From NCBI GenBank assembly GCA_030428125.1, contig JAUIBF010000001.1, positions 426,383 to 490,382 of the forward strand: a stretch of 64,000 bases of DNA. The letters run 5' to 3'. The notes beneath the pieces are model-generated. The model was not told where the DNA came from, made no database searches, and worked only from the letters and a program-made list of their open reading frames with translations. Shown piece after piece: positions 10,384-50,063 of this stretch. The stretch's first letter is position 1. Each line of letters starts with the position of its first letter. The stretch is from a bacterium (GTDB lineage Bacteria > Patescibacteriota > Saccharimonadia > Saccharimonadales > SZUA-47). The translations under genes were made by a program, and so were the position numbers.

Positions 10384-10817
10384 TGCATAGACACGGATAT
10401 AAAGGTCGCAAATTCGGCCGTGAAAGGGATCAGCGTGAAGCTCTTATTAAGGGCCTAGCGGATAGCTTGATTCTTCACGAGTCAATTGAGACCACATTAG
10501 AAAAGGCTAAGGACCTACGTCCATACGTAGAAAAATTAGTCACCAAGGCACGCAAAGGTGGACTTCACAATCGTCGTCAGATTATTAAATCTGTACAGAC
10601 TCTTGAAGCAGCACACAAGCTTGTCGATGACATCGCTCCAAAGATGAAGCGAGACAGTGGATACCTACGAATTGAGAAGTCAGATTTACGCCGAGGCGAT
10701 AATGCACAGATGGCAAGAATCTCATTTGTTGATGATTTGAAGGAAGCTCCAGTTGCTAAAAAAGCTGAAGCTAAGCCTGCTGTAAAGAAAACTACTGCTA
10801 AAAAGGAGGCTAAATAA
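10383..10817 (+). CDS. rplQ: 50S ribosomal protein L17
   Basis: MHRHGYKGRKFGRERDQREALIKGLA is L17-like. It carries a K/A-rich C-tail. Confidence 0.94.
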   Translation: MHRHGYKGRKFGRERDQREALIKGLADSLILHESIETTLEKAKDLRPYVEKLVTKARKGGLHNRRQIIKSVQTLEAAHKLVDDIAPKMKRDSGYLRIEKSDLRRGDNAQMARISFVDDLKEAPVAKKAEAKPAVKKTTAKKEAK

Positions 10818-11260
10818 TGAAAACTTATTCAGCTAAACCAACAGAAGTTGAACGAAAATGGTATGTGATTGATGCTTCAGAAGCACCAGTTGGTAGAATT
10901 TCTACAAAAATCGCTACGCTTTTGACTGGAAAAGGTAAGCCAATGTTTACCTCACACATCGATTGCGGTGATTACGTAATTGTAATTAACACTGATAAAG
11001 CTGTATTTTCAGGACTAAAAGAGGAAGATAAGAAATATTATCGGCACACTGGATATCCTGGTGGTATCAAGGAACGAACTGTTAGAGAACAACGTGAACT
11101 TGATTCGACAGCTCTAATCGAAAAATCAGTATTTGGAATGTTACCAACTAACAAGTTGCGTGACGGACGAATGAAGAGACTTAAACTTTACGCTGGTGCA
11201 GAGCACAACAACGAAGCTCAAAAGCCAGAAGTTATTAGTTTCAAGAAAGAAGGTAAATAA
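10817..11260 (+). CDS. rplM: 50S ribosomal protein L13
   Basis: L13-like N-terminus (VERKWYVIDASEAPVGRISTKIATLLTGK); 147 aa. Confidence 0.95.
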   Translation: MKTYSAKPTEVERKWYVIDASEAPVGRISTKIATLLTGKGKPMFTSHIDCGDYVIVINTDKAVFSGLKEEDKKYYRHTGYPGGIKERTVREQRELDSTALIEKSVFGMLPTNKLRDGRMKRLKLYAGAEHNNEAQKPEVISFKKEGK

Positions 11261-11652
11261 TGGCTGAGCATTACACATACGCATTAGGTCGCCGAAAAAG
11301 CGCTACAGCACGTGTACGCCTAACAAACGGTAAAGGAAATATTACTGTTAACGGTGTAACTGCTGAAGAGTATTTTGCTGGAAGCGGTATGCTTCTAACT
11401 GAGCTAAAAGCTCCGTTTAAAGCTATAGAAGACGACAAATACAATGCATCTGTAGTTGTAAGTGGTGGTGGCCACGCTGGTCAAGTTGACGCTATTAAGC
11501 TTGCTATCTCTAAAGCTCTTGTTGAAAAGAACGAAAGCTTGAAAGGTACGCTTAAGAAAGCTGACCTACTCGGACGAGATCCTCGAGAGAAAGAACGTAA
11601 GAAGTTCGGACTTAAAGGCGCTCGTAAGCAACGACAGTTTACCAAGCGTTAG
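11260..11652 (+). CDS. rpsI: 30S ribosomal protein S9
   Basis: 130 aa ending ...ARKQRQFTKR, with the S9 core GGGHAGQVDAIKLAISKAL. Confidence 0.95.
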   Translation: MAEHYTYALGRRKSATARVRLTNGKGNITVNGVTAEEYFAGSGMLLTELKAPFKAIEDDKYNASVVVSGGGHAGQVDAIKLAISKALVEKNESLKGTLKKADLLGRDPREKERKKFGLKGARKQRQFTKR

Positions 11653-11670
11653 GAAACTTTCGTTAACTAG

Positions 11671-11701
11671 ATACCCCGGGCACTATACCTGGGGTATTTT
11701 T
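11671..11701 (+). terminator. Intrinsic terminator of the r-protein operon
   Basis: ATACCCCGG (11671-11679) pairs with CCTGGGGTAT-side bases 11689-11697 (9 bp including one G-U). The loop is 9 nt and a T-run follows. Confidence 0.75.
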
Positions 11702-11704
11702 AGT

Positions 11705-11733
11705 TTGCAATTGTAATAGTTTAGTTGTATTAT
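11705..11733 (+). promoter_or_regulatory. sigma70-like promoter of the pheA leader
   Basis: TTGCAA (11705-11710), 17-nt spacer, TATTAT (11728-11733). The leader ATG lies 9 nt downstream. Confidence 0.55.
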
Positions 11734-11742
11734 CATCTTGAT

Positions 11743-11820
11743 ATGAAACAGATCGTAAACTTCTTTTACTTTTGGTTTACTAGCCCTAAACAGGCGGTTT
11801 GTTCAGTACGCATAAAATAA
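11743..11820 (+). CDS. Aromatic-rich leader peptide MKQIVNFFYFWFTSPKQAVCSVRIK
   Basis: A 25-codon ORF not in the track with six consecutive Phe/Tyr/Trp codons at 11761-11778. It contains the antiterminator arm and lies upstream of the pheA-like gene. Confidence 0.6.
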   Translation: MKQIVNFFYFWFTSPKQAVCSVRIK

Positions 11821-11867
11821 TTAAGCAAGATAAGAACAAGACAGACCGCCAGGACAGGCGGTTTTTT
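11793..11867 (+). promoter_or_regulatory. Attenuator with alternative antiterminator (11793-11802 : 11841-11850) and terminator (11843-11850 : 11857-11864 plus T6)
   Basis: Hand-paired 10-bp versus 8-bp mutually exclusive helices share the ACCGCC arm. T6 lies at 11862-11867. Confidence 0.6.
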
Positions 11868-11885
11868 AAATTAACGGAGTAGTAA

Positions 11886-12749
11886 ATGGGTCTAATAGTA
11901 GCGCAACAAGGAATAAAGGGTTCGTATCATGACATAGTTCGTCAGGATATGTTTCCCGATAGTACTATGATGGGTCTAGATAGCTTTCATGAAGTCGTTT
12001 TAGCTGTTGAGGATCGATCTGCAGATATTGGTATTATGGCTGTAGAAAACTCTATACATGCGGACACTCCAGCAGCTTTGGAGTTGCGTACGAACTTTGA
12101 AAGGTTGGAGATATTTGGTGAAACTGTGCTAGATATTACTCACAGACTAATCGGTGCGGCAGACGGTGATATTGACGAGATTAGGTCACATCAAGTTGCA
12201 ATAAGTCAGTGCCGTAAACGTGCTCGCGAACTATATCCAGGCGTTCGGCTTGTAGAGTCAGTAGATACAGCTGTAGCAGTTGAGGAAGTTGCCAGATTAG
12301 CTTTGCAAGGCGTAACTAACGTTGCTGCTATCGGTAGTCGGCTAGCCGGACAGCTCCATCCACATCTAGCAGAAATCCAGACGGATATGAACGACTACGA
12401 TAACAATCAGACGAGGTTCTTGATTTTTAAACGCGAAGATAACGATATTGTAGATTTGGATCCTGATAAAGCCGATAAGACTACGGTGAGGTTAGTTGTA
12501 CCGGATAGAAAAGATGGTCTACTGGACGCGATGAAGATTCTTAGCTATTACGACGTTAACTACACCTCATTAATCGCTAACGGATTTAGGTATGATTCAA
12601 GAGATGGTGAAATTGTTATTCCTGCGGAGTTTACACATGCATGGCACGATGATCGTTTGGTGCAGGCAGTGGCGGAAATAAAGAGCAAGTTAGGTGGAAA
12701 AGTCGATAATTTAGGAAGCTACCCAACAGGGAAAGTTTTGAAGGTTTAA
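11886..12749 (+). CDS. pheA: Prephenate dehydratase (PDT domain plus ACT-like domain)
   Basis: 287 aa with PDT motifs (IMAVENSIHA, IRSHQVAISQC, NNQTRFLIF). A C-terminal ACT-like segment follows (KTTVRLVVPDRKDGLLDAMKIL). Confidence 0.8.
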   Translation: MGLIVAQQGIKGSYHDIVRQDMFPDSTMMGLDSFHEVVLAVEDRSADIGIMAVENSIHADTPAALELRTNFERLEIFGETVLDITHRLIGAADGDIDEIRSHQVAISQCRKRARELYPGVRLVESVDTAVAVEEVARLALQGVTNVAAIGSRLAGQLHPHLAEIQTDMNDYDNNQTRFLIFKREDNDIVDLDPDKADKTTVRLVVPDRKDGLLDAMKILSYYDVNYTSLIANGFRYDSRDGEIVIPAEFTHAWHDDRLVQAVAEIKSKLGGKVDNLGSYPTGKVLKV

Positions 12750-12750
12750 T

Positions 12751-13437
12751 ATGAGTGACATAGTAGGAATAGTTGGGTGTAACGGCGACTTAGGTGGGCA
12801 ACTAGCCTTGTTACATAGACAGTTTGGCGTTGAAGTGGTAGGGTTTGATATTGAATATCGTGAACGACCTTTTAAAGTCGTGCAGAGTCTGGCAGAACTT
12901 CAAGTACAAGTTGAAAATATTCACTGGTGTGCACCTGCTTCAGTAATAGATACTTACGATGCAGAGCATACAGATTTAGGTCGAGTAATTTTGCACGATA
13001 GCGTCATGAATAACAGTGCGTTGGCGTGCGATGTTCTCTCGGAGAGAACCAATAGAGGAGTAGGTATGGCTCACATGCTAATGAACTCGCAAAATATGGT
13101 GGTGATTGCTCAAGAGTCAGATGACCCTATAAGTTTGGTTGGCATTTTTGAAGACATTGGTTGTAAAACCCAAATCATGTCCGCTGTAGAGCATGATACA
13201 GTTATGGCTCACTCTCAAGCTATATACGCGATACTGCACGAGCTTGTTAGCGAAGAATTAACTACATATGGTAACTTTGGCCTGCTAACACCCTCAGGAG
13301 AAGAGTTAAAAGGTGCATTAGAAAGTAGAGCAGCGATTTGGACCCCTGCTACAATGGCGTCGCTACTTAAGAATCCACAAATAATTCCACTATTAGAAAA
13401 AGCTAGGAATATGGCTAAGGCGAGAAATGGTAACTAA
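12751..13437 (+). CDS. Prephenate/arogenate dehydrogenase-like protein (short TyrA-like)
   Basis: 228 aa with an N-terminal Rossmann-like IVGIVGCNGDLGG and a VEHDTVMAHSQAIYAILH segment resembling the TyrA H-D...H region. It is adjacent to pheA. The assignment is tentative. Confidence 0.5.
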   Translation: MSDIVGIVGCNGDLGGQLALLHRQFGVEVVGFDIEYRERPFKVVQSLAELQVQVENIHWCAPASVIDTYDAEHTDLGRVILHDSVMNNSALACDVLSERTNRGVGMAHMLMNSQNMVVIAQESDDPISLVGIFEDIGCKTQIMSAVEHDTVMAHSQAIYAILHELVSEELTTYGNFGLLTPSGEELKGALESRAAIWTPATMASLLKNPQIIPLLEKARNMAKARNGN

Positions 13438-13447
13438 GGATAAAACA

Positions 13448-13510
13448 ATGAAATTTTTAAACAATAAGTTTTGGTATTTCGTGACGACACTAGGTTGGCG
13501 GTATTGCTGA
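13448..13510 (+). CDS. Second aromatic-rich leader peptide MKFLNNKFWYFVTTLGWRYC
   Basis: A 20-codon ORF not in the track with SD AAGGA at 13436-13440. Seven of its 20 codons are Phe/Trp/Tyr. It contains the antiterminator arm. Confidence 0.6.
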   Translation: MKFLNNKFWYFVTTLGWRYC

Positions 13511-13557
13511 AGTTACTAAATTTAACGAACTACAGACCGCCGACGAGGCGGTTTTTT
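13494..13557 (+). promoter_or_regulatory. Second attenuator with antiterminator (13494-13502 : 13536-13544) versus terminator (13534-13541 : 13547-13554 plus T6)
   Basis: Hand-paired 9-bp versus 8-bp alternative helices. The terminator sequence ACAGACCGCC...AGGCGGTTTTTTAA is nearly identical to the one at 11841-11869. Confidence 0.6.
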
Positions 13558-13583
13558 AATAGATAAATTAAGGAGAAAAAATA

Positions 13584-13847
13584 ATGAATAACTTAAGTTT
13601 AGCGCAAGTCCAAGAATTACTAAGGGAAAATAAAGTTTTAGTTACGCCTGAAGATGACGGAAATCCTGTCCATACTGCTCATGCGATGGGCATTATTGGA
13701 CTAGAACAAGTAGAGCTCACAGAGTCTGGATACTTTGACGGGGTTGATCAAAGTAGAATGATTACCCACGGAAGGGTTGTTGATACTGTTGGTTTTGGTC
13801 AACGAGTAATGCAAGCGGTACTTCTTGATGACGGGAGTTTGACGTGA
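13584..13847 (+). CDS. Hypothetical protein (87 aa)
   Basis: Strong SD (AAGGAGA). It is the first gene after attenuator 2 and its stop overlaps the next start. I recognise no motif. Confidence 0.55.
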   Translation: MNNLSLAQVQELLRENKVLVTPEDDGNPVHTAHAMGIIGLEQVELTESGYFDGVDQSRMITHGRVVDTVGFGQRVMQAVLLDDGSLT

Positions 13848-14425
13848 AAACCATAGCAATTATTGGCGGAATGGGACCCCAAGCCTCATTATTCGCACAA
13901 AAAAAGATTATTGAGGAATTAGAAAAACGAGATATTAAAGCGAACACCGTTCATATATCTTTAAGCATTGATGAGTTTTTTGATGAAGAGCCTAAATTAA
14001 ATTTAGCTAAAGAACAAAAGAGCTTACTCAAAAACATTAAGGCAGATACGGGTATCATTGCTTGCAATACAGCACACATATTTTTTGATGATTTCCAAAA
14101 ACTAGTAAGTTTTCCTTTGGTTAGTTTAGTTAATGAAGTAGAACTAAGCTCTGATAGCACTATTGTCTGCTCTCCGACAAGCAGAAGCATTAAGATATTC
14201 GGAAGTGACGTACATTACTTAAATGACGATGAATCAAAAATGATCGGAGAAGTAATAAGAAATATCAATCAAAGCAAAAAACACGTTAAGCTTTCAAAAA
14301 TAGTAAAAAACAAGAAAGATCTAGTCTTTGCCTGTTCAGAGATAAGCATGCTTGCTGACCAGGAAGGTATAGATGGTACTGATACTTTGAAGCTTGCTGT
14401 TGATAAGGTAGTAAATACGCTATAA
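13844..14425 (+). CDS. Asp/Glu/hydantoin racemase-family protein (short)
   Basis: IAIIGGMGPQAS, ACNTAH and ACSEIS motifs correspond to the two catalytic-Cys segments of aspartate/glutamate racemases; 193 aa. Confidence 0.7.
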   Translation: MKTIAIIGGMGPQASLFAQKKIIEELEKRDIKANTVHISLSIDEFFDEEPKLNLAKEQKSLLKNIKADTGIIACNTAHIFFDDFQKLVSFPLVSLVNEVELSSDSTIVCSPTSRSIKIFGSDVHYLNDDESKMIGEVIRNINQSKKHVKLSKIVKNKKDLVFACSEISMLADQEGIDGTDTLKLAVDKVVNTL

Positions 14426-15480
14426 TGAAATTAATGAGCAAACAGGTAATTTTGACTGGTATTAGAGCCAACAATGATTTAACTATTGGCAACTATTTTG
14501 GTGCAATTTTGCCAATGATTGATATGGCAACTACTCGCGCTGAAGAGTTTCAGGTTAATTTATTTGTGCCGGATTTGCATAGCTTTACCACACCCATAAA
14601 CCATAGAGAACTGCAGTCGGCCATTTGGAATAATCTACGGATATTTGTGGCCGCGGGGTTACCTCTAGATCAGCCAGATATTCATATATATCGTCAAAGT
14701 TACATCCCGGCACATAGTGAAATGACTTGGATTATAGATTGTTTTGTCGGTATGGGTGAACTTGGCAGAATGACTCAGTTTAAAGAAAAATCTTACAAAG
14801 AGGATGAATCAAAATCTGGCGAGGATAGGGTGAGGGTAGGTTTGTTCAATTACCCAGTGCTTATGGCGGCTGATATCTTGCTTTATAACGCTACATATGT
14901 GCCGGTTGGAGACGATCAGACACAACATTTAGAATTTACACGTGATATTGCAGAACGATTAAACAATAAGTTTGACCAGGAGTTATTCACGATTCCAAAA
15001 CCTGTTAAAGAACAGCACGAATTCTTCGGAAAAGACCAAGGATTACGCATTAAAGATTTGCAAGACCCAACTAAAAAGATGAGTAAATCTGATGAATCTG
15101 GAAAAGGTGTAATATTCTTGAACGATTCGCCTGAGCTAGCAGCTAAAAAAGTCATGTCAGCTACAACAGATTCTGTTGGTCAAGTTAACCTAGACTGGGA
15201 AAATCAACCGGGAATATCTAATCTGTTGCAAATTCTAGCTCTATTTCAGCATAGAAGTATTGAAGAAGTGGCATCAGAGTGGCAAGGAAACACGCAATAC
15301 GGTGAATTTAAGAAGACGGTCGCTGACGCTGTCAAGGGCTTCTTAGTTGACCTGCAAGACAAATTAGCTCAAGTAGACGATTCTGCTGTAAAAACCAAGC
15401 TAGAGGCCTCTGAAGCAGCTATGGACAAAGTTGCTGGTGAGACGCTACTAAAAACTCAAAAAGCCGTAGGTTTGCGTTGA
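14425..15480 (+). CDS. trpS: Tryptophan--tRNA ligase
   Basis: 351 aa with a TIGN variant of HIGH, YPVLMAADILLY, VPVGDDQTQHLEFTRDIAERLN and KMSKS. Confidence 0.93.
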   Translation: MKLMSKQVILTGIRANNDLTIGNYFGAILPMIDMATTRAEEFQVNLFVPDLHSFTTPINHRELQSAIWNNLRIFVAAGLPLDQPDIHIYRQSYIPAHSEMTWIIDCFVGMGELGRMTQFKEKSYKEDESKSGEDRVRVGLFNYPVLMAADILLYNATYVPVGDDQTQHLEFTRDIAERLNNKFDQELFTIPKPVKEQHEFFGKDQGLRIKDLQDPTKKMSKSDESGKGVIFLNDSPELAAKKVMSATTDSVGQVNLDWENQPGISNLLQILALFQHRSIEEVASEWQGNTQYGEFKKTVADAVKGFLVDLQDKLAQVDDSAVKTKLEASEAAMDKVAGETLLKTQKAVGLR

Positions 15481-39472: not shown

Positions 39473-40014
39473 TGAGCAAAAGATACGACACCAGTCGTAG
39501 CTGGTATGCAATCCACACCTACAGTGGATACGAAGAAAAAGTCGCGGAATCTATTAGACAACGTGCGGACAGCTTAGATATGAAGGACAAGATCTTTCAA
39601 GTCTTAGTCCCTAAAGAAAAAATGATCGAGATCAAAAACGGTAAGCGAAAAGTTGTTGAGAAGAAGATTTTTCAGGGTTACGTACTTGTCGAAATGAAAC
39701 TGTCGGAAGACGCTTGGTACATCGTGCGAAACACACCTTCTGTAACAGGCTTTGTTGGAACAGGAAACGATCCATCACCAGTTAGCGATGACGAGATAGA
39801 AAAAATCATGAAGCGAATGGGCAAAGAAGAACCTAAGCACAAAATCGACTTTGCTGTTGGCGAAATTGTTAATATCATCGATGGTCCATTCAAAGGATTC
39901 GATGGCTCCATCAATGAGATAGATGAAGCTAAAGGTAAGCTTAAGGTTCTAGTGAACATGTTCGGACGTGAAACTCCAGTTGAGCTAGACGGACTTCAGG
40001 TTAAGAAAACTTAA
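39472..40014 (+). CDS. nusG: Transcription termination/antitermination factor NusG
   Basis: WYAIHTYSGYEEKV NGN start and a KOW motif (GEIVNIIDGPFKGFDGSI); 180 aa. Confidence 0.95.
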   Translation: MSKRYDTSRSWYAIHTYSGYEEKVAESIRQRADSLDMKDKIFQVLVPKEKMIEIKNGKRKVVEKKIFQGYVLVEMKLSEDAWYIVRNTPSVTGFVGTGNDPSPVSDDEIEKIMKRMGKEEPKHKIDFAVGEIVNIIDGPFKGFDGSINEIDEAKGKLKVLVNMFGRETPVELDGLQVKKT

Positions 40015-40035: not shown

Positions 40036-40066
40036 AGACATTGCAAGAAATCGGCAATGTCTTTTT
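40036..40066 (+). terminator. Intrinsic terminator after nusG
   Basis: AGACATTGC (40036-40044) pairs with GCAATGTCT (40054-40062), a perfect 9-bp stem followed by T5. Confidence 0.75.
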
Positions 40067-40069
40067 AAT

Positions 40070-40579
40070 ATGATTCAAATGGGAGAGGCGCAAACAGAAA
40101 GAGCTGTTGTTGAGAGAGATGCCGCATCACTTGTGGTTATTTTAACGTCTCTAGATCCTAATGCTGAAAACCCAGTAGCAATGTTACTAGCAAAATCTGG
40201 TTTACATGTAGGACAAGAACCTTACTCCGATTGGGTACTAGGTGATTTTGATCCTACAGCTAATGACAGTAAGGAATTGTTAAGTTTAGCAGGTGAAGCA
40301 GGAATAGTTCAGAGGAACGCCTTAAGAGGTTTAGCATATTTTGGATGTAGAGATCGTGCAAGAGTTGCGGTAATAGATGATTTGTTTGAAGAACGAGAAG
40401 CAGGTTCTGCTGCTGCGCATAAAGCACTACTGAAATATTGTGGGGTAGAAAGACCTACTTACGACAATTTAGTAGGTCGTGCTTGGCACTACAGTGCTTT
40501 GGAAGACACCATAAGAAGTAATGTTGCATATCAGTTAGCCGGAGTTGACCCTGCGAATCTACGAGACGATAGTCGCTAG
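40070..40579 (+). CDS. Hypothetical protein (169 aa ORFan) inserted between nusG and rplK
   Basis: The ORF starts 4 nt after the terminator T-run. It may contain helical repeats. I recognise no motif. Confidence 0.5.
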   Translation: MIQMGEAQTERAVVERDAASLVVILTSLDPNAENPVAMLLAKSGLHVGQEPYSDWVLGDFDPTANDSKELLSLAGEAGIVQRNALRGLAYFGCRDRARVAVIDDLFEEREAGSAAAHKALLKYCGVERPTYDNLVGRAWHYSALEDTIRSNVAYQLAGVDPANLRDDSR

Positions 40580-44092: not shown

Positions 44093-44919
44093 TTCTTCGT
44101 GGACTAGAGAATATACCTACGGATAGCGCACTGGAAACTGACCTTCGTGTGTATGGACAGCTGCACTCAATAGACAGTTTGCGTGAACCATTACAAAACA
44201 GTGTTCATGGCGTCAATCTAGCAAACCTAAAACCTAGATTCAGTTTCTATTGGCAAAAATACTGGCCTGATTTTGCAAAGTTTGCAGAGTTGTATGGACC
44301 TGATGTGGACCCGGTGCAACACGGCCCGTACCAAGCTAGGACTATCGCCATACCAATGGTAGATGCTCAACGTAGCGCTGGACTATCTGGATTGTCAGGA
44401 AGAACTGGAGAGGCATTTGTTGCGCACACAGTTCAGCACGATGACCATGAAGGTACAGAAGCAAAAAATAGAGGTTCTGACAGAGACAGGCAATACATAG
44501 ACAGGACAGCTCAACACGAACACGATGAATTTGAGCTATGGAAGGACATCCACAGAGAGCTATTCGGAGAAGAAGCTTCAAGGACTCAAATATGGCATGC
44601 TACAAGATTTGAACACGGCAATGGATTTGCTGGCACGCTATTTGGCACAAAAGAATTCATTGGGTATCTAGCAACAGGAATTCAAAGTATTCACATAGCC
44701 ATGGAGGAGCCTGCACTGTTAGATATTGAGCGTGAAGGCGCCTGGGAAATGGGACGCAGGGTTGTTGCACATCATTATCAAAACGTAGCACCAAGTAGGG
44801 AAGTCATTGCCTACTCAGATACGGCTTTGTCTCACGGAGATGAGGCAATTAGAGCAATCACTGACCATTTCGACGTAAGTAGAGAGGAGTTATTTGCAAG
44901 TGAAGTCAGAAGAATTTAA
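44089..44919 (+). CDS. Hypothetical protein (276 aa), translationally coupled inside the dcd - tmk::thyX operon
   Basis: The start overlaps the dcd stop (ATGA), and the 3' end overlaps the tmk::thyX start. It contains a His/Asp/Glu-rich segment (AHTVQHDDHEGTE...QHEHDEFELWKDIHRELFGEE). Confidence 0.6.
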   Translation: MILRGLENIPTDSALETDLRVYGQLHSIDSLREPLQNSVHGVNLANLKPRFSFYWQKYWPDFAKFAELYGPDVDPVQHGPYQARTIAIPMVDAQRSAGLSGLSGRTGEAFVAHTVQHDDHEGTEAKNRGSDRDRQYIDRTAQHEHDEFELWKDIHRELFGEEASRTQIWHATRFEHGNGFAGTLFGTKEFIGYLATGIQSIHIAMEEPALLDIEREGAWEMGRRVVAHHYQNVAPSREVIAYSDTALSHGDEAIRAITDHFDVSREELFASEVRRI

Positions 44920-47218
44920 AGGTAGATTTTTTGTAATTGAGGGAACTGATGCTTCGGGTAAGACAACCCAGTTCAACCTTCTAACTGAGAGGCTACTAAA
45001 CGAAGGTTACGATGTAGTTACGTTTGATTTTCCTCAGTATGATAATGATTCTAGTTTCTTTGTGCGTGAATACTTGGGTGGTAAGTATGGAACTGCTGAC
45101 GAGGTTGGACCCTATACAGCAAGTGTGTTTTATGCCCTGGATAGATTTGCCGCAAAAGATGCTATAAAAGAAGCATTAGATGCAGGTAAAATCGTACTCT
45201 CTAATAGATTCACAGGCAGCAATATGGCGCACCAGGGAACTAAATTCACTAACGCAGAACAACGCAGAGGGTTCTTCATCTGGGAAGACAATTTAGAATT
45301 TCAAATGCTGGGAATTCCTAGACCAACGGCTAGCATCGTTCTCCGTGTAGATGCTCAAACTAGCATGCAATTAATTGAGCTGAGGGCTGAAAAAGAAGGA
45401 CGAGAAAAAGACATTCATGAAGCTGACCAGTCACACCTGGAGCGCTCTGTTGAGGTTTATGACGACCTTTGCGCTTTGTTTCCAAAAGATTTTTTGCGGG
45501 TAGATTGCGTTCGTAGCAAGAAGCTAATGACACGTCATCAAGTTCATGACATTGTCTGGAGCTCTGTCGAAAGATTATTGCCTAAAGCTACGAAAGAAAA
45601 AGGCACGTTAGTAAAGGGTTCCGATAATCAAAAAGAATTGGTCGCAAAGAATTCTGACGGCGTTAATTACATTACAGATGCCGGCAAAGAATTCCTGAAG
45701 GATGCCGTAACTACTACCGAAGGCAATGTTTATGCATTCAGCGATCAAATGAGCCCAATAACCATCGCTGCTGCTATGGCACGATTAAGTCGTAGAGCGG
45801 ATGATATGCGCATCACTATATTGGACGAGTTCTCAAGCAGTACAAGTAAAAAAGATGAAAAACTATTGCAGCGAGTCATTACTGCTTACGGAGACGATTC
45901 GGTTCAGCAACTCGTAGGTCAGCACGTAGTGGTTGAGGGTGCATCTAACTTGCTTACTAAAAAACTAGAGTGGGGACGACTAGCGAGTTACCTAGAGCAG
46001 TCTACAAGATACATATTCTTTGATCAAAAAGATGAACAGGGAAGGTATAAATATGTAACTCCAAGCAACCTAAAAGGTAATGCCTTGCAAAGTTACGTAG
46101 AAATAATGGACGAAATATTTGATACATATTCTGTAATGGTCCGAGAACTAACCGACTATGTCCGTAAAAACTCAAAAACCCCTAAAGCAGAGCAGGATGT
46201 TGCATGGAAAGGTGCAACCAAAGCCCAAGCATGTGATGCAATACGACCTGTTCTGCCAGTAGCTACTAAATCTACCGTGGGAATATTTGCATCAGGACAA
46301 GCACTGGAAAGCTTGATAATGCATCTTCTGAGCGATGAATTGTCAGAATCTAAAGAAACTGGACAGAAAATGCTTGAAGAAAGCAGGAAAGTCCTTAGCA
46401 CGTTCTTAGAGCGCGCTGACAAACCAGAACGTGGAGGCGCTGCCATTGCGTACCGTGCAAACACCAGAGAAGCCACTCGAGACTTAGCTGAAGCATACTT
46501 ACCTGAAAACCATTCTGCCGAGTCAAAGCCTGTGGATCTAGTTTCATATTGGCCTAGAAACGAGATGGATTTAGTCGCCGACATGCTTTATGAATACAGC
46601 AGCTTACCACTCAGAGATATACAGAGAAGCGTTGAAAGCTGGGATTTCGATAAAAAAGAGCAAGTATTTAAATCATACATAGGAGAAAGATTAAACCGTC
46701 GGCATAAACCAGGTAGAGCTTTAGAGAAAGCGCACTATAGTTGGGATTTAGTCTGTGATTACGGTATCTTCAGAGATCTGCAAAGACATCGAATGGTTGA
46801 CGATTTACAGTGGCAACAGTTAACTCCTAGGTACGGATACGATATCCCTGAACTGGTTGAAGAAGCAGGGCTAACGGAAAGTTATCAGCATTGTTTTGAT
46901 AAATCACTAGAGCTATATAGCATTTTGACTGAATCAGGATACGATAACGAAGCACAGTATGCTACATTGTTAGGCCATAAAATGCGTTGGAAGATTACGT
47001 ATAACGCTAGGCAGGCTTTCCATTTCCACGAACTACGAACAACTCCTCACGGTCACCCTGGATATCGTAAATTGGTAAAGCAAATGCACGATGTGGTGTG
47101 TCAGGTACACCCATTAATCGGGCAGGCTATGAAGTTTGTTAATCAAGATGAAGACCCTGAATTAACTCGTCTTGCTGCAGAGCGCTACACGCAGTTTAAG
47201 CTAGAGAAGTTGAACTAA
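44894..47218 (+). CDS. tmk/thyX: Fusion protein of thymidylate kinase and a tandem-duplicated flavin-dependent thymidylate synthase (ThyX-like)
   Basis: The N-terminal roughly 235 aa are Tmk (FFVIEGTDASGKTTQ). The rest holds two ThyX-like halves, WGRLASYLEQSTRY (45971-46012) and LQRHRMV (RHR at 46784-46792). The start may be TTG 44894 or GTG 44900, behind the SD GAGAGGAG. Confidence 0.85.
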   Translation: MQVKSEEFKGRFFVIEGTDASGKTTQFNLLTERLLNEGYDVVTFDFPQYDNDSSFFVREYLGGKYGTADEVGPYTASVFYALDRFAAKDAIKEALDAGKIVLSNRFTGSNMAHQGTKFTNAEQRRGFFIWEDNLEFQMLGIPRPTASIVLRVDAQTSMQLIELRAEKEGREKDIHEADQSHLERSVEVYDDLCALFPKDFLRVDCVRSKKLMTRHQVHDIVWSSVERLLPKATKEKGTLVKGSDNQKELVAKNSDGVNYITDAGKEFLKDAVTTTEGNVYAFSDQMSPITIAAAMARLSRRADDMRITILDEFSSSTSKKDEKLLQRVITAYGDDSVQQLVGQHVVVEGASNLLTKKLEWGRLASYLEQSTRYIFFDQKDEQGRYKYVTPSNLKGNALQSYVEIMDEIFDTYSVMVRELTDYVRKNSKTPKAEQDVAWKGATKAQACDAIRPVLPVATKSTVGIFASGQALESLIMHLLSDELSESKETGQKMLEESRKVLSTFLERADKPERGGAAIAYRANTREATRDLAEAYLPENHSAESKPVDLVSYWPRNEMDLVADMLYEYSSLPLRDIQRSVESWDFDKKEQVFKSYIGERLNRRHKPGRALEKAHYSWDLVCDYGIFRDLQRHRMVDDLQWQQLTPRYGYDIPELVEEAGLTESYQHCFDKSLELYSILTESGYDNEAQYATLLGHKMRWKITYNARQAFHFHELRTTPHGHPGYRKLVKQMHDVVCQVHPLIGQAMKFVNQDEDPELTRLAAERYTQFKLEKLN

Positions 47219-49324: not shown

Positions 49325-49353
49325 TTGTAATTACCTATCAGAGGTGCTATAAT
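49325..49353 (+). promoter_or_regulatory. sigma70-like promoter of the rplJ-rplL leader
   Basis: TTGTAA (49325-49330), 17 nt, TATAAT (49348-49353). Confidence 0.6.
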
Positions 49354-49360
49354 TACATCT

Positions 49361-49481
49361 GTTACCGAAGACAGTAGCTGGAGAAATCCTTAATCGCGCT
49401 ACCGAGGATAATAAAGAGATTTATTGTTTTTGAGCACTAAGACGCTACTTCGGAAGAAGTAGTTTTTTAATACTCGGTAAC
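49361..49481 (+). promoter_or_regulatory. Structured rplJ leader (L10-leader-like) containing an internal terminator
   Basis: GTTACCGA (49361-49368) is complementary to TCGGTAAC (49474-49481). That pairing encloses the internal terminator hairpin at 49445-49468. The leader is about 185 nt long. Confidence 0.5.
49445..49468 (+). terminator. Leader terminator upstream of rplJ
   Basis: CTACTTC-GGAA-GAAGTAG is a perfect 7-bp stem with a GGAA tetraloop, followed by T6. It lies 74 nt before the rplJ ATG. Confidence 0.7.
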
Positions 49482-49541: not shown

Positions 49542-50063
49542 ATGGCATTAACCAAAGATAAGAAACAAGAAATCGTTAAGGAACTAGCTGATTTATTAGC
49601 AAGTTCTAAGATGACTGTTGTCGCTAAGTACGAAGGTACTACCGTTAAAGCAATGCAGGAACTTCGCTCAAACGCTGAAGAAAACGGCACAAGCATCAAG
49701 GTTGTAAAAAACCGACTTGTCCGTAAAGCATTTGAAGCTACCGACTCTCACAAGGAAAGCGATACAGCTGACCTAGAAGGTATGCTTATGTACGCATTCA
49801 ACGCTGACGACGAAGTGGCTCCAGCTCAAGTTATCAAAAACATGAGCAAGAGCGAACCACAACTGGAGTTTGTGTGTGCATACGACAATAGCGGTAATTT
49901 CTTAAGTGCAGAGGATGTGAAAGCACTAGCTGATCTACCTAGCCGTGAAGAAATGATTGCAACAGTTATTAACACCTTGAAATCACCTGTTAACAATGTT
50001 GTTAGCGGACTTTCAGGTAACCTACACGGCCTGCTAGATGCAGTTGCCGTTAAAGCAAATTAA
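49542..50063 (+). CDS. rplJ: 50S ribosomal protein L10
   Basis: 173 aa with an L10-like N-terminus (KDKKQEIVKELADLLASSKMTVVAKYEGTTVKAMQELR). Confidence 0.94.
   Translation: MALTKDKKQEIVKELADLLASSKMTVVAKYEGTTVKAMQELRSNAEENGTSIKVVKNRLVRKAFEATDSHKESDTADLEGMLMYAFNADDEVAPAQVIKNMSKSEPQLEFVCAYDNSGNFLSAEDVKALADLPSREEMIATVINTLKSPVNNVVSGLSGNLHGLLDAVAVKAN

Follow-up and report, generated by a model that had tools for sequence, protein, structure and literature searches.

A candidate leader-peptide attenuator with an aromatic codon run, the first of two in a Saccharibacteria pheA gene cluster

Introduction

In the enterobacterial pheL-pheA system (Rfam RF01859, Phe_leader; Gurvich et al. 2011, PMC3082878), a short open reading frame (ORF) of Phe codons lies before pheA, a terminator competes with an alternative upstream pairing, and a stalled ribosome brings about read-through. 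The pheL genes reported in that paper are from gamma-proteobacteria only (PMC3082878). Here we describe a similar element in a 64,000-nucleotide (nt) stretch of contig JAUIBF010000001.1 (assembly GCA_030428125.1; 'the window'), which comes from a Saccharibacteria genome of the Candidate Phyla Radiation (CPR). The spacer between rpsI and a pheA-like gene probably contains a transcription attenuator of the ribosome-mediated (leader-peptide) type, through which pheA and a neighbouring tyrA-like gene would respond to the supply of aromatic aminoacyl-tRNAs. Its sequence further suggests that it is the first of two paralogous attenuators in a single aromatic amino-acid gene cluster. The attenuation principle is textbook; what is new is its phylogenetic reach and its bearing on CPR physiology. 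A literature search covering CPR, Patescibacteria and Saccharibacteria, with incomplete coverage, found no paper on leader-peptide attenuation. This is consistent with a preliminary description of the spacer, made from the letters alone, whose author knew of no such case from CPR-type genomes.

The Saccharibacteria leader differs from pheL in mixing Phe, Tyr and Trp codons (pheL uses Phe alone), in being predicted leaderless, with no Shine-Dalgarno sequence, and in having no conserved helix between segments 1 and 2. The second element is instead similar to trpL-type leaders (RF00513, Trp_leader): it has a Trp-codon short ORF followed by mutually exclusive terminator and antiterminator helices. 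Unlike trpL, it would gate trpS and its neighbours rather than trpE, and it lies inside the gene cluster, where in four relatives its start codon overlaps the pheA stop codon as ATGA. The elements resemble the Rfam Phe_leader and Trp_leader models weakly, over full length, and membership in these families was rejected. Against Phe_leader the window scores 25.6 bits (E = 0.25) and five relatives 25.7–34.4 bits, with a gathering score of 55; against Trp_leader the second element (13490–13560) scores 20.9 bits and its relatives 24.9–28, with a gathering score of 41. A T-box search found no Rfam match at E ≤ 10 in window positions 10500–13500 and 13300–13700 or in 11 related loci.

A mycobacterial system offers a parallel for leaderless sensing. 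According to a preprint, leaderless polycysteine short ORFs of mycobacteria start at or next to the transcript 5′ end, sense amino-acid supply by ribosome stalling, and work by keeping a ribosome-binding site from being sequestered (Canestrari et al., bioRxiv 10.1101/834739). Unlike the ORFs described there, the Saccharibacteria switch is a hairpin and U-tract terminator, the pheA Shine-Dalgarno sequence lies outside both helices, and leaderless status is read from promoter geometry only. Leader-peptide attenuators have also been predicted in Actinobacteria (Seliverstov et al. 2005, PMC1262725), and Staphylococcus aureus has been shown to have one with a Leu-rich peptide (PMC5794164). These elements are of the same kind, have no sequence in common with the one described here, and come from outside CPR.

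Loci compared

Orthologs of the window PheA form a set of 11 clusters at 45–91% identity, followed by a gap to 37%. DNA around them was taken from genome and assembly collections, giving 12 distinct loci: the window and 11 Saccharibacteria relatives. Unless stated otherwise, counts below refer to these 12. One of the fetched loci comes from a metagenome-assembled genome titled Candidatus Saccharibacteria. The window RpoA is 85% identical to the RpoA of this genome, and window ribosomal proteins are 80–87% identical to their counterparts there, so that the CPR assignment is reasonable. A metagenome scan for more orthologs yielded only two distant PheA loci (L004 and L005), which were used as outgroups.

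The pheA leader and its alternative helices

Re-reading of positions 11400–12200 found each sequence feature of the preliminary description where that description had placed it. The features of the leader are as follows.

11669..11701, + strand: intrinsic terminator of the rpsI (S9) operon, a 12-bp stem followed by a T run
11705..11733, + strand: predicted promoter, −35 TTGCAA (11705–11710), 17-nt spacer, −10 TATTAT (11728–11733)
11743..11820, + strand: leader ORF 1, ATG at 11743, TAA at 11818–11820, 25 codons, MKQIVNFFYFWFTSPKQAVCSVRIK; predicted leaderless
11761..11778, + strand: regulatory run Phe-Phe-Tyr-Phe-Trp-Phe, codons 7–12, read from the sequence
11793..11803, + strand: segment 2, antiterminator 5′ arm inside the leader ORF, GGCGGTTTGTT
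11840..11850, + strand: segment 3, shared arm that pairs with segment 2 or segment 4, GACAGACCGCC
11857..11867, + strand: segment 4 and U-tract, terminator 3′ arm GGCGG TTTTTT; 8-bp hairpin, −12.7 kcal/mol

The antiterminator joins GGCGGTTTGT (11793–11802) to ACAGACCGCC (11841–11850) through 10 bp that include one G-U pair, and ViennaRNA adds an eleventh pair, T11803-G11840. The terminator joins AGACCGCC (11843–11850) to GGCGGTTT (11857–11864) and is followed by a T6 tract ending at 11867. Since segment 3 pairs with either partner, the two helices are mutually exclusive, as first described. The T6 tract ends 19 nt before the pheA ATG (11886), which leaves no room for a further promoter between the terminator and pheA. 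The Shine-Dalgarno sequence of pheA (GGAG, 11876–11879) is 3′ of the U-tract and in neither helix.

The preliminary description had called for a comparison of the two constrained folds, which we ran. The two states are nearly isoenergetic: −27.4 kcal/mol (terminator) versus −26.5 kcal/mol (antiterminator) for free RNA, and −17.8 versus −17.9 kcal/mol once the ribosome-covered 5′ part is masked. The 141-nt region as a whole folds better than its own shuffles (z = −2.3). A pairing of codons 2–6 with segment 2, present in the minimum free energy (MFE) fold of the window, is not conserved and was not used.

The run FFYFWF is the sole run of at least five aromatic codons in the six frames of the 64-kb window, and only 1 of 5000 base shuffles of leader ORF 1 matches its aromatic density (P = 0.0002). 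The arm pattern GGCGG-N25–55-CCGCC-N3–12-GGCGGTTTT occurs twice in the window and in none of 100 dinucleotide shuffles. Given the unique run, the patterned arms and these shuffle tests, chance in a genome of 41% G+C does not account for the features.

A promoter geometry that predicts a leaderless leader

Relatives of the window have a hairpin equivalent to the rpsI terminator after their rpsI. The intrinsic terminator of the rpsI operon shows that this lineage has terminators of the hairpin-plus-T kind, and that pheA has to have a separate promoter. A consensus promoter scan lists the TTGCAA/TATTAT site, but its total is no higher than in shuffles. Read from the leader sequences, a TTGnnn box stands 16–17 nt 5′ of a TAnnnT box in all 12 loci. 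The end of the −10 box is 6–9 nt from the leader start codon in every first leader (7–9 nt by the listed hexamers; 6 nt in L009 if TATTTT is taken as the −10 box).

Transcription usually starts about 7 nt past the −10 box. With the −10 box ending 6–9 nt before the ATG, the start codon would fall at +1 to +4, and leader ORF 1 is predicted to be leaderless. The preliminary description had given the same promoter and ORF coordinates, which stand; the leaderless consequence of the geometry was not remarked there. No Shine-Dalgarno sequence was found between the promoter and the leader ORF 1 start in the 12 loci. This is weak evidence when taken alone, because a Shine-Dalgarno-like 4-mer is present at only about half of the window genes. 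The fixed promoter geometry is thus the main argument for predicting leaderless translation. The ORF listing for the window shows leader ORF 1 with a TTG extension from 11725.

Conservation across Saccharibacteria

Each of the 12 loci has a short ORF with 4–8 aromatic codons followed by GGCGG...CCGC(C)...GCGG-T6. Alignment of the orthologous spacers, suggested in the preliminary description, therefore finds the aromatic ORF and the hairpin kept together, with the ORF in frame throughout. The first leader peptides are listed by locus.

Window: MKQIVNFFYFWFTSPKQAVCSVRIK
L006: MRQIVNFYYFWFTSPKQAVCSVRIK
L002: MKQILNYFDFYWFTTQFEAVRF
L016: MKQILNYFEFYWFTTRYEAVRI
L018: MNQILNYFEFFWFTTRYEAVSF
L012: MRLINVFFDYFWFTTRRQAVSF
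L009: VKQLLNYFDLFWFTTQSEAASF, GTG start
L019: MKQIMHYYFGFWFTDVEKAASF
L003: MKQIMHYYFGFWFTDTAKAASF
L001: MIKTNRYFDFFWFAGSKEAASL
L008: MNKTNRYFDCLWFTGSKEAASL
L014: MKLNTFSFAFFEGPN

The peptides are 15–26 amino acids (aa) long and hydrophobic, and most begin MKQI. Changes inside the aromatic run are TTT/TTC or TAT/TAC synonyms or exchanges of Phe and Tyr, and its sole indel is exactly one codon. TGGTTT (Trp-Phe) is invariant in 11 of the 12 first leaders. The run of L014, FSFAFF, has no Trp or Tyr codon, and the switch is kept there as well. The start-codon frame is the frame richest in aromatic codons in 12/12 first leaders and in 22/22 leaders when the second attenuators described below are included. 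Between compared pairs, the leader ORF is 70–93% identical; the spacer between segments 2 and 3 is mostly 56–74% identical, rising to 93–96% in the two closest pairs.

The genomic surroundings vary more than the element. The leader is beside rpsI in six loci and occurs in five upstream contexts overall. For example, L001 and L008 have an extra gene between rpsI and the leader, and L012, L006 and L009 have an upstream neighbour that is encoded on the other strand. A LysE-family gene directly 5′ of pheA follows the leader in L003, L009 and L019. The element thus travels with the start of the operon and not with rpsI.

The similar length, hydrophobic character and common MKQI start of these peptides could also be taken as signs of a free-standing gene for a micropeptide, with a promoter and terminator of its own and no relation to pheA expression. 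Such a gene would leave pheA downstream of a terminator without a promoter, and the element always accompanies the first gene of the pheA operon. Moreover, the amino acids beyond the aromatic block show little conservation, and the C-terminal half of the peptide is set at the nucleotide level by the GGCGG arm rather than by amino-acid conservation. We give this reading the smallest chance of those considered.

Both helices of the proposed attenuator are recovered by folding. The full-length MFE fold includes the terminator in 11/12 first-attenuator loci; in the exception, L019, the antiterminator fold is 1.1 kcal/mol lower (−25.5 versus −24.4 kcal/mol). When segment 4 is left out, the MFE fold is the 2:3 antiterminator in 12/12 first and 10/10 second attenuators. 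The 5-bp core GGCGG/CCGCC/GGCGG is invariant in all 22 elements. This invariance is expected, because one arm must fit two partners and any change needs three coordinated substitutions.

Compensatory changes, which the preliminary description had proposed to look for in both helices, are found in the flanks around this core. At flank position +4, L001 and L008 have U-A in place of C-G in the terminator, and their antiterminator retains a G-U. Across segments 2, 3 and 4, position +6 is G/C/G in three loci, and two loci have A/T/A there. At −1 the antiterminator has A-T in L014 versus T-A elsewhere, and the three segments read T/A/T or A/T/A. A MAFFT alignment of whole leaders misaligned segment 3 and was replaced by a gap-free alignment of the arms of all 22 elements, with the invariant CCGC and GCGG cores as anchors. 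On this alignment the antiterminator has a covariation score of 0.210 (shuffle mean 0.139, reached in 1 of 500 shuffles; best slid control 0.137; 73.9% of cells paired). The corresponding score of the terminator is 0.175 (shuffle mean 0.111, reached in 0 of 500; best slid control 0.097; 79.8% of cells paired). Sequence anatomy, conservation, covariation and folding energetics are shown here.

A set of constitutive partial terminators, holding fixed ratios between the ribosomal-protein operon, pheA and trpS whatever the amino-acid supply, would need neither stalling nor a functional ORF, which would be a by-product of T-rich sequence. The region is indeed AT- and T-rich, and the promoter scan, as noted, does no better than on shuffles. 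A plain terminator has no need of a competing helix, however, and here that helix is conserved and covaries. In addition, the element comes after a strong rpsI terminator and has a conserved promoter in front of it, and an aromatic run unique in the window stays in frame across 12 loci. We regard constitutive termination as very improbable.

Ribosome position and proposed mechanism

GGCGG begins 14 nt past the last aromatic codon in every one of the 12 loci except L014, where the spacing is 15 nt. The front edge of a bacterial ribosome is about 10–13 nt past the A-site codon, so a ribosome stalled anywhere in the run would leave the arm free. The preliminary description had placed such a ribosome upstream of the arm, which agrees with these distances; its figure of about 15 nt becomes 14 nt. 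Nine loci have the stop codon 12 nt from where the GCGG core starts, in L014 it abuts the arm, and given these positions a terminating ribosome would bury segment 2 in all ten.

From the sequence we infer the following scheme, including its transcription start, leaderless translation, stalling, termination and amino-acid response. Transcription would start at the conserved promoter a few bases from the leader ATG, so that the leader ORF is read leaderless. A shortage of charged Phe-, Tyr- or Trp-tRNA would stall the ribosome in FFYFWF, with its front edge short of the GGCGG arm. The free arm would pair with ACCGCC once this is transcribed, no terminator would form, and RNA polymerase would read into pheA and the tyrA-like gene. 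With a good supply, the ribosome would run over the arm toward the stop codon and ACCGCC would pair with the downstream GGCGG; the 8-bp hairpin and U6 would then terminate transcription 19 nt before pheA. Read-through transcripts would meet a second switch of like design, at 13448–13557, whose Trp/Tyr-rich leader would gate an 87-aa gene, a racemase-like gene and trpS.

The same choice between helices might instead be made by a protein or an uncharged tRNA that binds the leader RNA, with the ORF incidental. The GGCGG/CCGCC/GGCGG triplet, invariant in 22/22 elements, could mark such a binding site, and the lack of a conserved segment 1 helix agrees with this idea. The invariance is expected in any case, given the three coordinated substitutions that each change requires, and neither a T-box nor another known leader family was found even at E ≤ 10. 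A bound factor would also not account for aromatic enrichment confined to the start-codon frame in 22/22 leaders with the start beside the promoter, for a codon-to-arm spacing fixed at 14 nt, or for a run whose one indel is a whole codon. We therefore assign factor-dependent antitermination only a very small probability.

A probable second attenuator downstream

A second, paralogous candidate attenuator at 13448–13557 was missed in the preliminary description. The lead to it came from weak Trp_leader and Phe_leader matches downstream of pheA in relatives. Its parts and the genes that follow it are listed here.

13448..13510, + strand: leader ORF 2, MKFLNNKFWYFVTTLGWRYC
13469..13480, + strand: regulatory codons Phe-Trp-Tyr-Phe of leader 2, read from the sequence
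13494..13502, + strand: segment 2′, GTTGGCGGT, pairs with 13536–13544
13534..13544, + strand: segment 3′, shared arm, AGACCGCCGAC
13547..13557, + strand: segment 4′ and U-tract GGCGG TTTTTT, 3′ arm of the terminator, 26 nt short of the ATG (13584)
13584..15480, + strand: 87-aa ORF, Asp/Glu-racemase-like gene and trpS, from a gene scan; Shine-Dalgarno sequence before the ATG at 13584

Homologues of leader 2 are present in nine other loci (e.g., MINFVLNYWYTYTQSWRYCFY and MKTHVNNYYWYETTQSWRYC). All ten second leaders have 6–10 aromatic codons and are rich in Tyr and Trp (2–5 Tyr, 2–3 Trp), whereas the first leaders are rich in Phe; TGGTA (Trp-Tyr) recurs in most of them. The alternative pairing holds in 10/10 second attenuators, with a three-way change at position −1 in those of L019 and L003, and their full-length folds are split between the terminator and antiterminator states. 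The cluster is thus predicted, from its sequence, to hold two paralogous switches in series with different codon spectra.

In the window, a Shine-Dalgarno sequence of leader ORF 2 (AAGGA, 13436–13440) overlaps the stop codon of the tyrA-like gene. In four relatives the leader 2 ATG overlaps the pheA stop codon as ATGA (L018:3287, L002:4849, L016:4849 and L009:2955), and there the sensing ribosome may be delivered by termination-reinitiation from pheA, an unusual way of loading a leader. In L014, L003 and L019 a TTGACA-type promoter ends 7–11 nt (7, 8 and 11) before the leader 2 start.

Genes proposed to be regulated

The first attenuator precedes two genes.

11886..12749, + strand: pheA-like gene (prephenate dehydratase), Pfam PF00800 (PDT), E = 3e-36
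12751..13437, + strand: compact TyrA-family (prephenate/arogenate dehydrogenase-like) gene, 228 aa, from profile and fold

NCBIfam prephenate dehydratase models match the window PheA below their cut-offs. A Pfam scan detected no ACT domain in this protein, only PDT. Its C-terminal 100 residues are conserved, with the motif EFTHAWHDDR, and many distant homologues carry PF01842 (ACT). The 228-aa protein has no Pfam match, and a direct sequence search of the PDB was uninformative. A profile of its family matches the prephenate dehydrogenase 5t9e (E = 9e-5). The AlphaFold2 model (pLDDT 95.6) gives top Foldseek PDB matches that are nearly all TyrA, with TM 0.70–0.78 and E of about 1e-9, and the gene product is therefore predicted to have the TyrA (prephenate dehydrogenase) fold. 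The proposal in the preliminary description that the regulated genes make Phe and Tyr, in keeping with the codons of the leader, is supported by the PDT match of PheA and, at the level of fold, by its TyrA-like neighbour. A tyrA-like match was found only in the window, L006 and L007 among the loci compared, and in none of the stretches fetched for the other loci.

Downstream of the second attenuator, the 86–87-aa ORF (13584–13847; L014:6629–6889; L019:4994–5254) always accompanies the racemase-like gene and trpS and has no Pfam or NCBIfam match. In L008 and L014 a divergent DAHP-synthase-like gene lies behind the second attenuator. Three relatives have a LysE/RhtB-family transporter gene between the leader and pheA (L003:3357–3993, L009:1492–2106 and L019:3327–3947).

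Leader-peptide elements in the outgroups

The two outgroup loci, whose PheA proteins are 33–41% identical, likewise have Phe/Tyr-rich short ORFs (MINRSYFGFYFSYYYSNGRMTNV and MGQYSPFFGYYFYFYFTKSGLGLHC) and a terminator upstream of pheA (L004:92–235 and L005:708–849). Their helices and RNA arms are unrelated to those of the Saccharibacteria element, and upstream there is a TAnnTTTG box, which we take to be the Bacteroidetes promoter type. With cases also in Actinobacteria, S. aureus and these two loci, leader-peptide attenuation is widespread. The two outgroup loci indicate such control of pheA in further lineages outside the Proteobacteria.

Points against the proposed attenuator and a ligand-sensing alternative

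Several observations weigh against ribosome-mediated attenuation as set out above. The replete, terminated state is less well explained in the window copy than in the relatives. The ORF of the window and of L006 has three additional codons, and its stop is 24 nt beyond the point where the GCGG core begins, so that a ribosome halted there would reach over no more than the 3′ part of the arm. The view that a ribosome reaching the stop favours the terminator, put forward in the preliminary description, therefore fits the nine loci and L014, and applies to the window only with this partial coverage. We conjecture that the window copy may depend on a ribosome that is passing across the arm and on the local terminator hairpin closing much faster.

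A second set of points concerns the architecture. RNAalifold on 11 leaders found no conserved segment 1:2 helix, only three trivial pairs. Single-sequence folds upstream of segment 2 give local hairpins whose registers differ between loci. With no conserved helix from the ORF start to segment 2, the design has three segments and not the four of trpL. The classical attenuation architecture invoked in the preliminary description thus holds for the alternative helices and the aromatic ORF and not for the full four-segment trpL layout. A segment 1 helix is the mark of the four-segment subtype and not of leader-peptide attenuators as a whole. Because there is neither a 1:2 helix nor a pause helix, however, the synchronisation of ribosome and RNA polymerase is unexplained, and untranslated RNA should default to read-through.

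The comparative evidence also has limits. The invariant 5-bp core gives no covariation signal, because nothing in it varies. Covariation in the flanks is supportive and not proof, since the sequences are related and represent few independent events. Between close pairs, the excess of substitutions at third codon positions is only mild, and it was not used as strong evidence. Finally, no other aromatic-pathway genes were found among 30 further window proteins scanned, which leaves the source of prephenate unexplained, and a LysE-family exporter under a starvation-induced switch, as in three relatives, is odd.

The exporter would be better suited to induction by excess than by starvation, which is what a TnaC-like nascent-peptide sensor would provide. 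On this alternative, Trp-Phe(-Thr) or Trp-Tyr cores would arrest the ribosome through the exit tunnel in response to a free aromatic compound or other small molecule; tRNA charging would have no role and the RNA switch would be the same. The TGGTTT (11/12) and TGGTA cores are conserved beyond what counting codons requires. L014 nevertheless keeps the switch with neither Trp nor Tyr, the rest of the peptide varies freely with Phe and Tyr interchanging, and a conserved TGGTTTAC can also be read as a local hairpin arm in several loci. Moreover, the genes are biosynthetic, so that induction by their product would be paradoxical. We consider this alternative very improbable. Equally improbable, in our estimate, is its wider form, in which the leaders would be a new kind of ligand-sensing arrest peptide for a free aromatic compound, possibly supplied by the host. 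They would switch a cluster (an orphan PheA and TyrA, joined in some relatives by a LysE-family transporter) that would serve an episymbiotic CPR bacterium in metabolite exchange.

Ribosome-mediated attenuation, the reading that we prefer, is supported in an amended form of the preliminary description: a predicted leaderless start, a three-segment design, an atypical stop position in the window copy, and a second, Trp/Tyr-biased copy.

Other features of the window

The window holds further features unrelated to the pheA cluster. At 44894–47218, a 774-aa ORF joins a thymidylate kinase domain (15–210) to a ThyX domain (549–740) in an apparent Tmk-ThyX fusion. A ribosomal protein L10 leader (Rfam RF00557, 65.3 bits, above the gathering score) lies at 49347–49477, 5′ of an ORF at 49542. 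Between an ORF ending at 40014 and one starting at 40070, a 9-bp hairpin followed by T5 (40036–40067) could be a plain terminator or a leader element.

Implications

The first element, at about 125 nt, is self-contained and hence testable in heterologous or cell-free systems. The codons of the leaders also offer annotation that is independent of homology, with Phe bias marking pheA and the tyrA-like gene, and Trp/Tyr bias marking the 87-aa gene, the racemase-like gene and trpS. Genomes of CPR bacteria, Saccharibacteria among them, are very small, and these bacteria are thought to do without most pathways of amino-acid biosynthesis and without much of the usual regulation. From the promoter geometry, this lineage seems to use leaderless initiation. 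If the proposed mechanism is true, it would need transcription and translation to be coupled tightly enough in CPR for the ribosome to steer RNA polymerase. The conserved pair of attenuators suggests that the isolated pheA and tyrA-like genes are in use and respond to the cell's own aromatic amino-acid supply.

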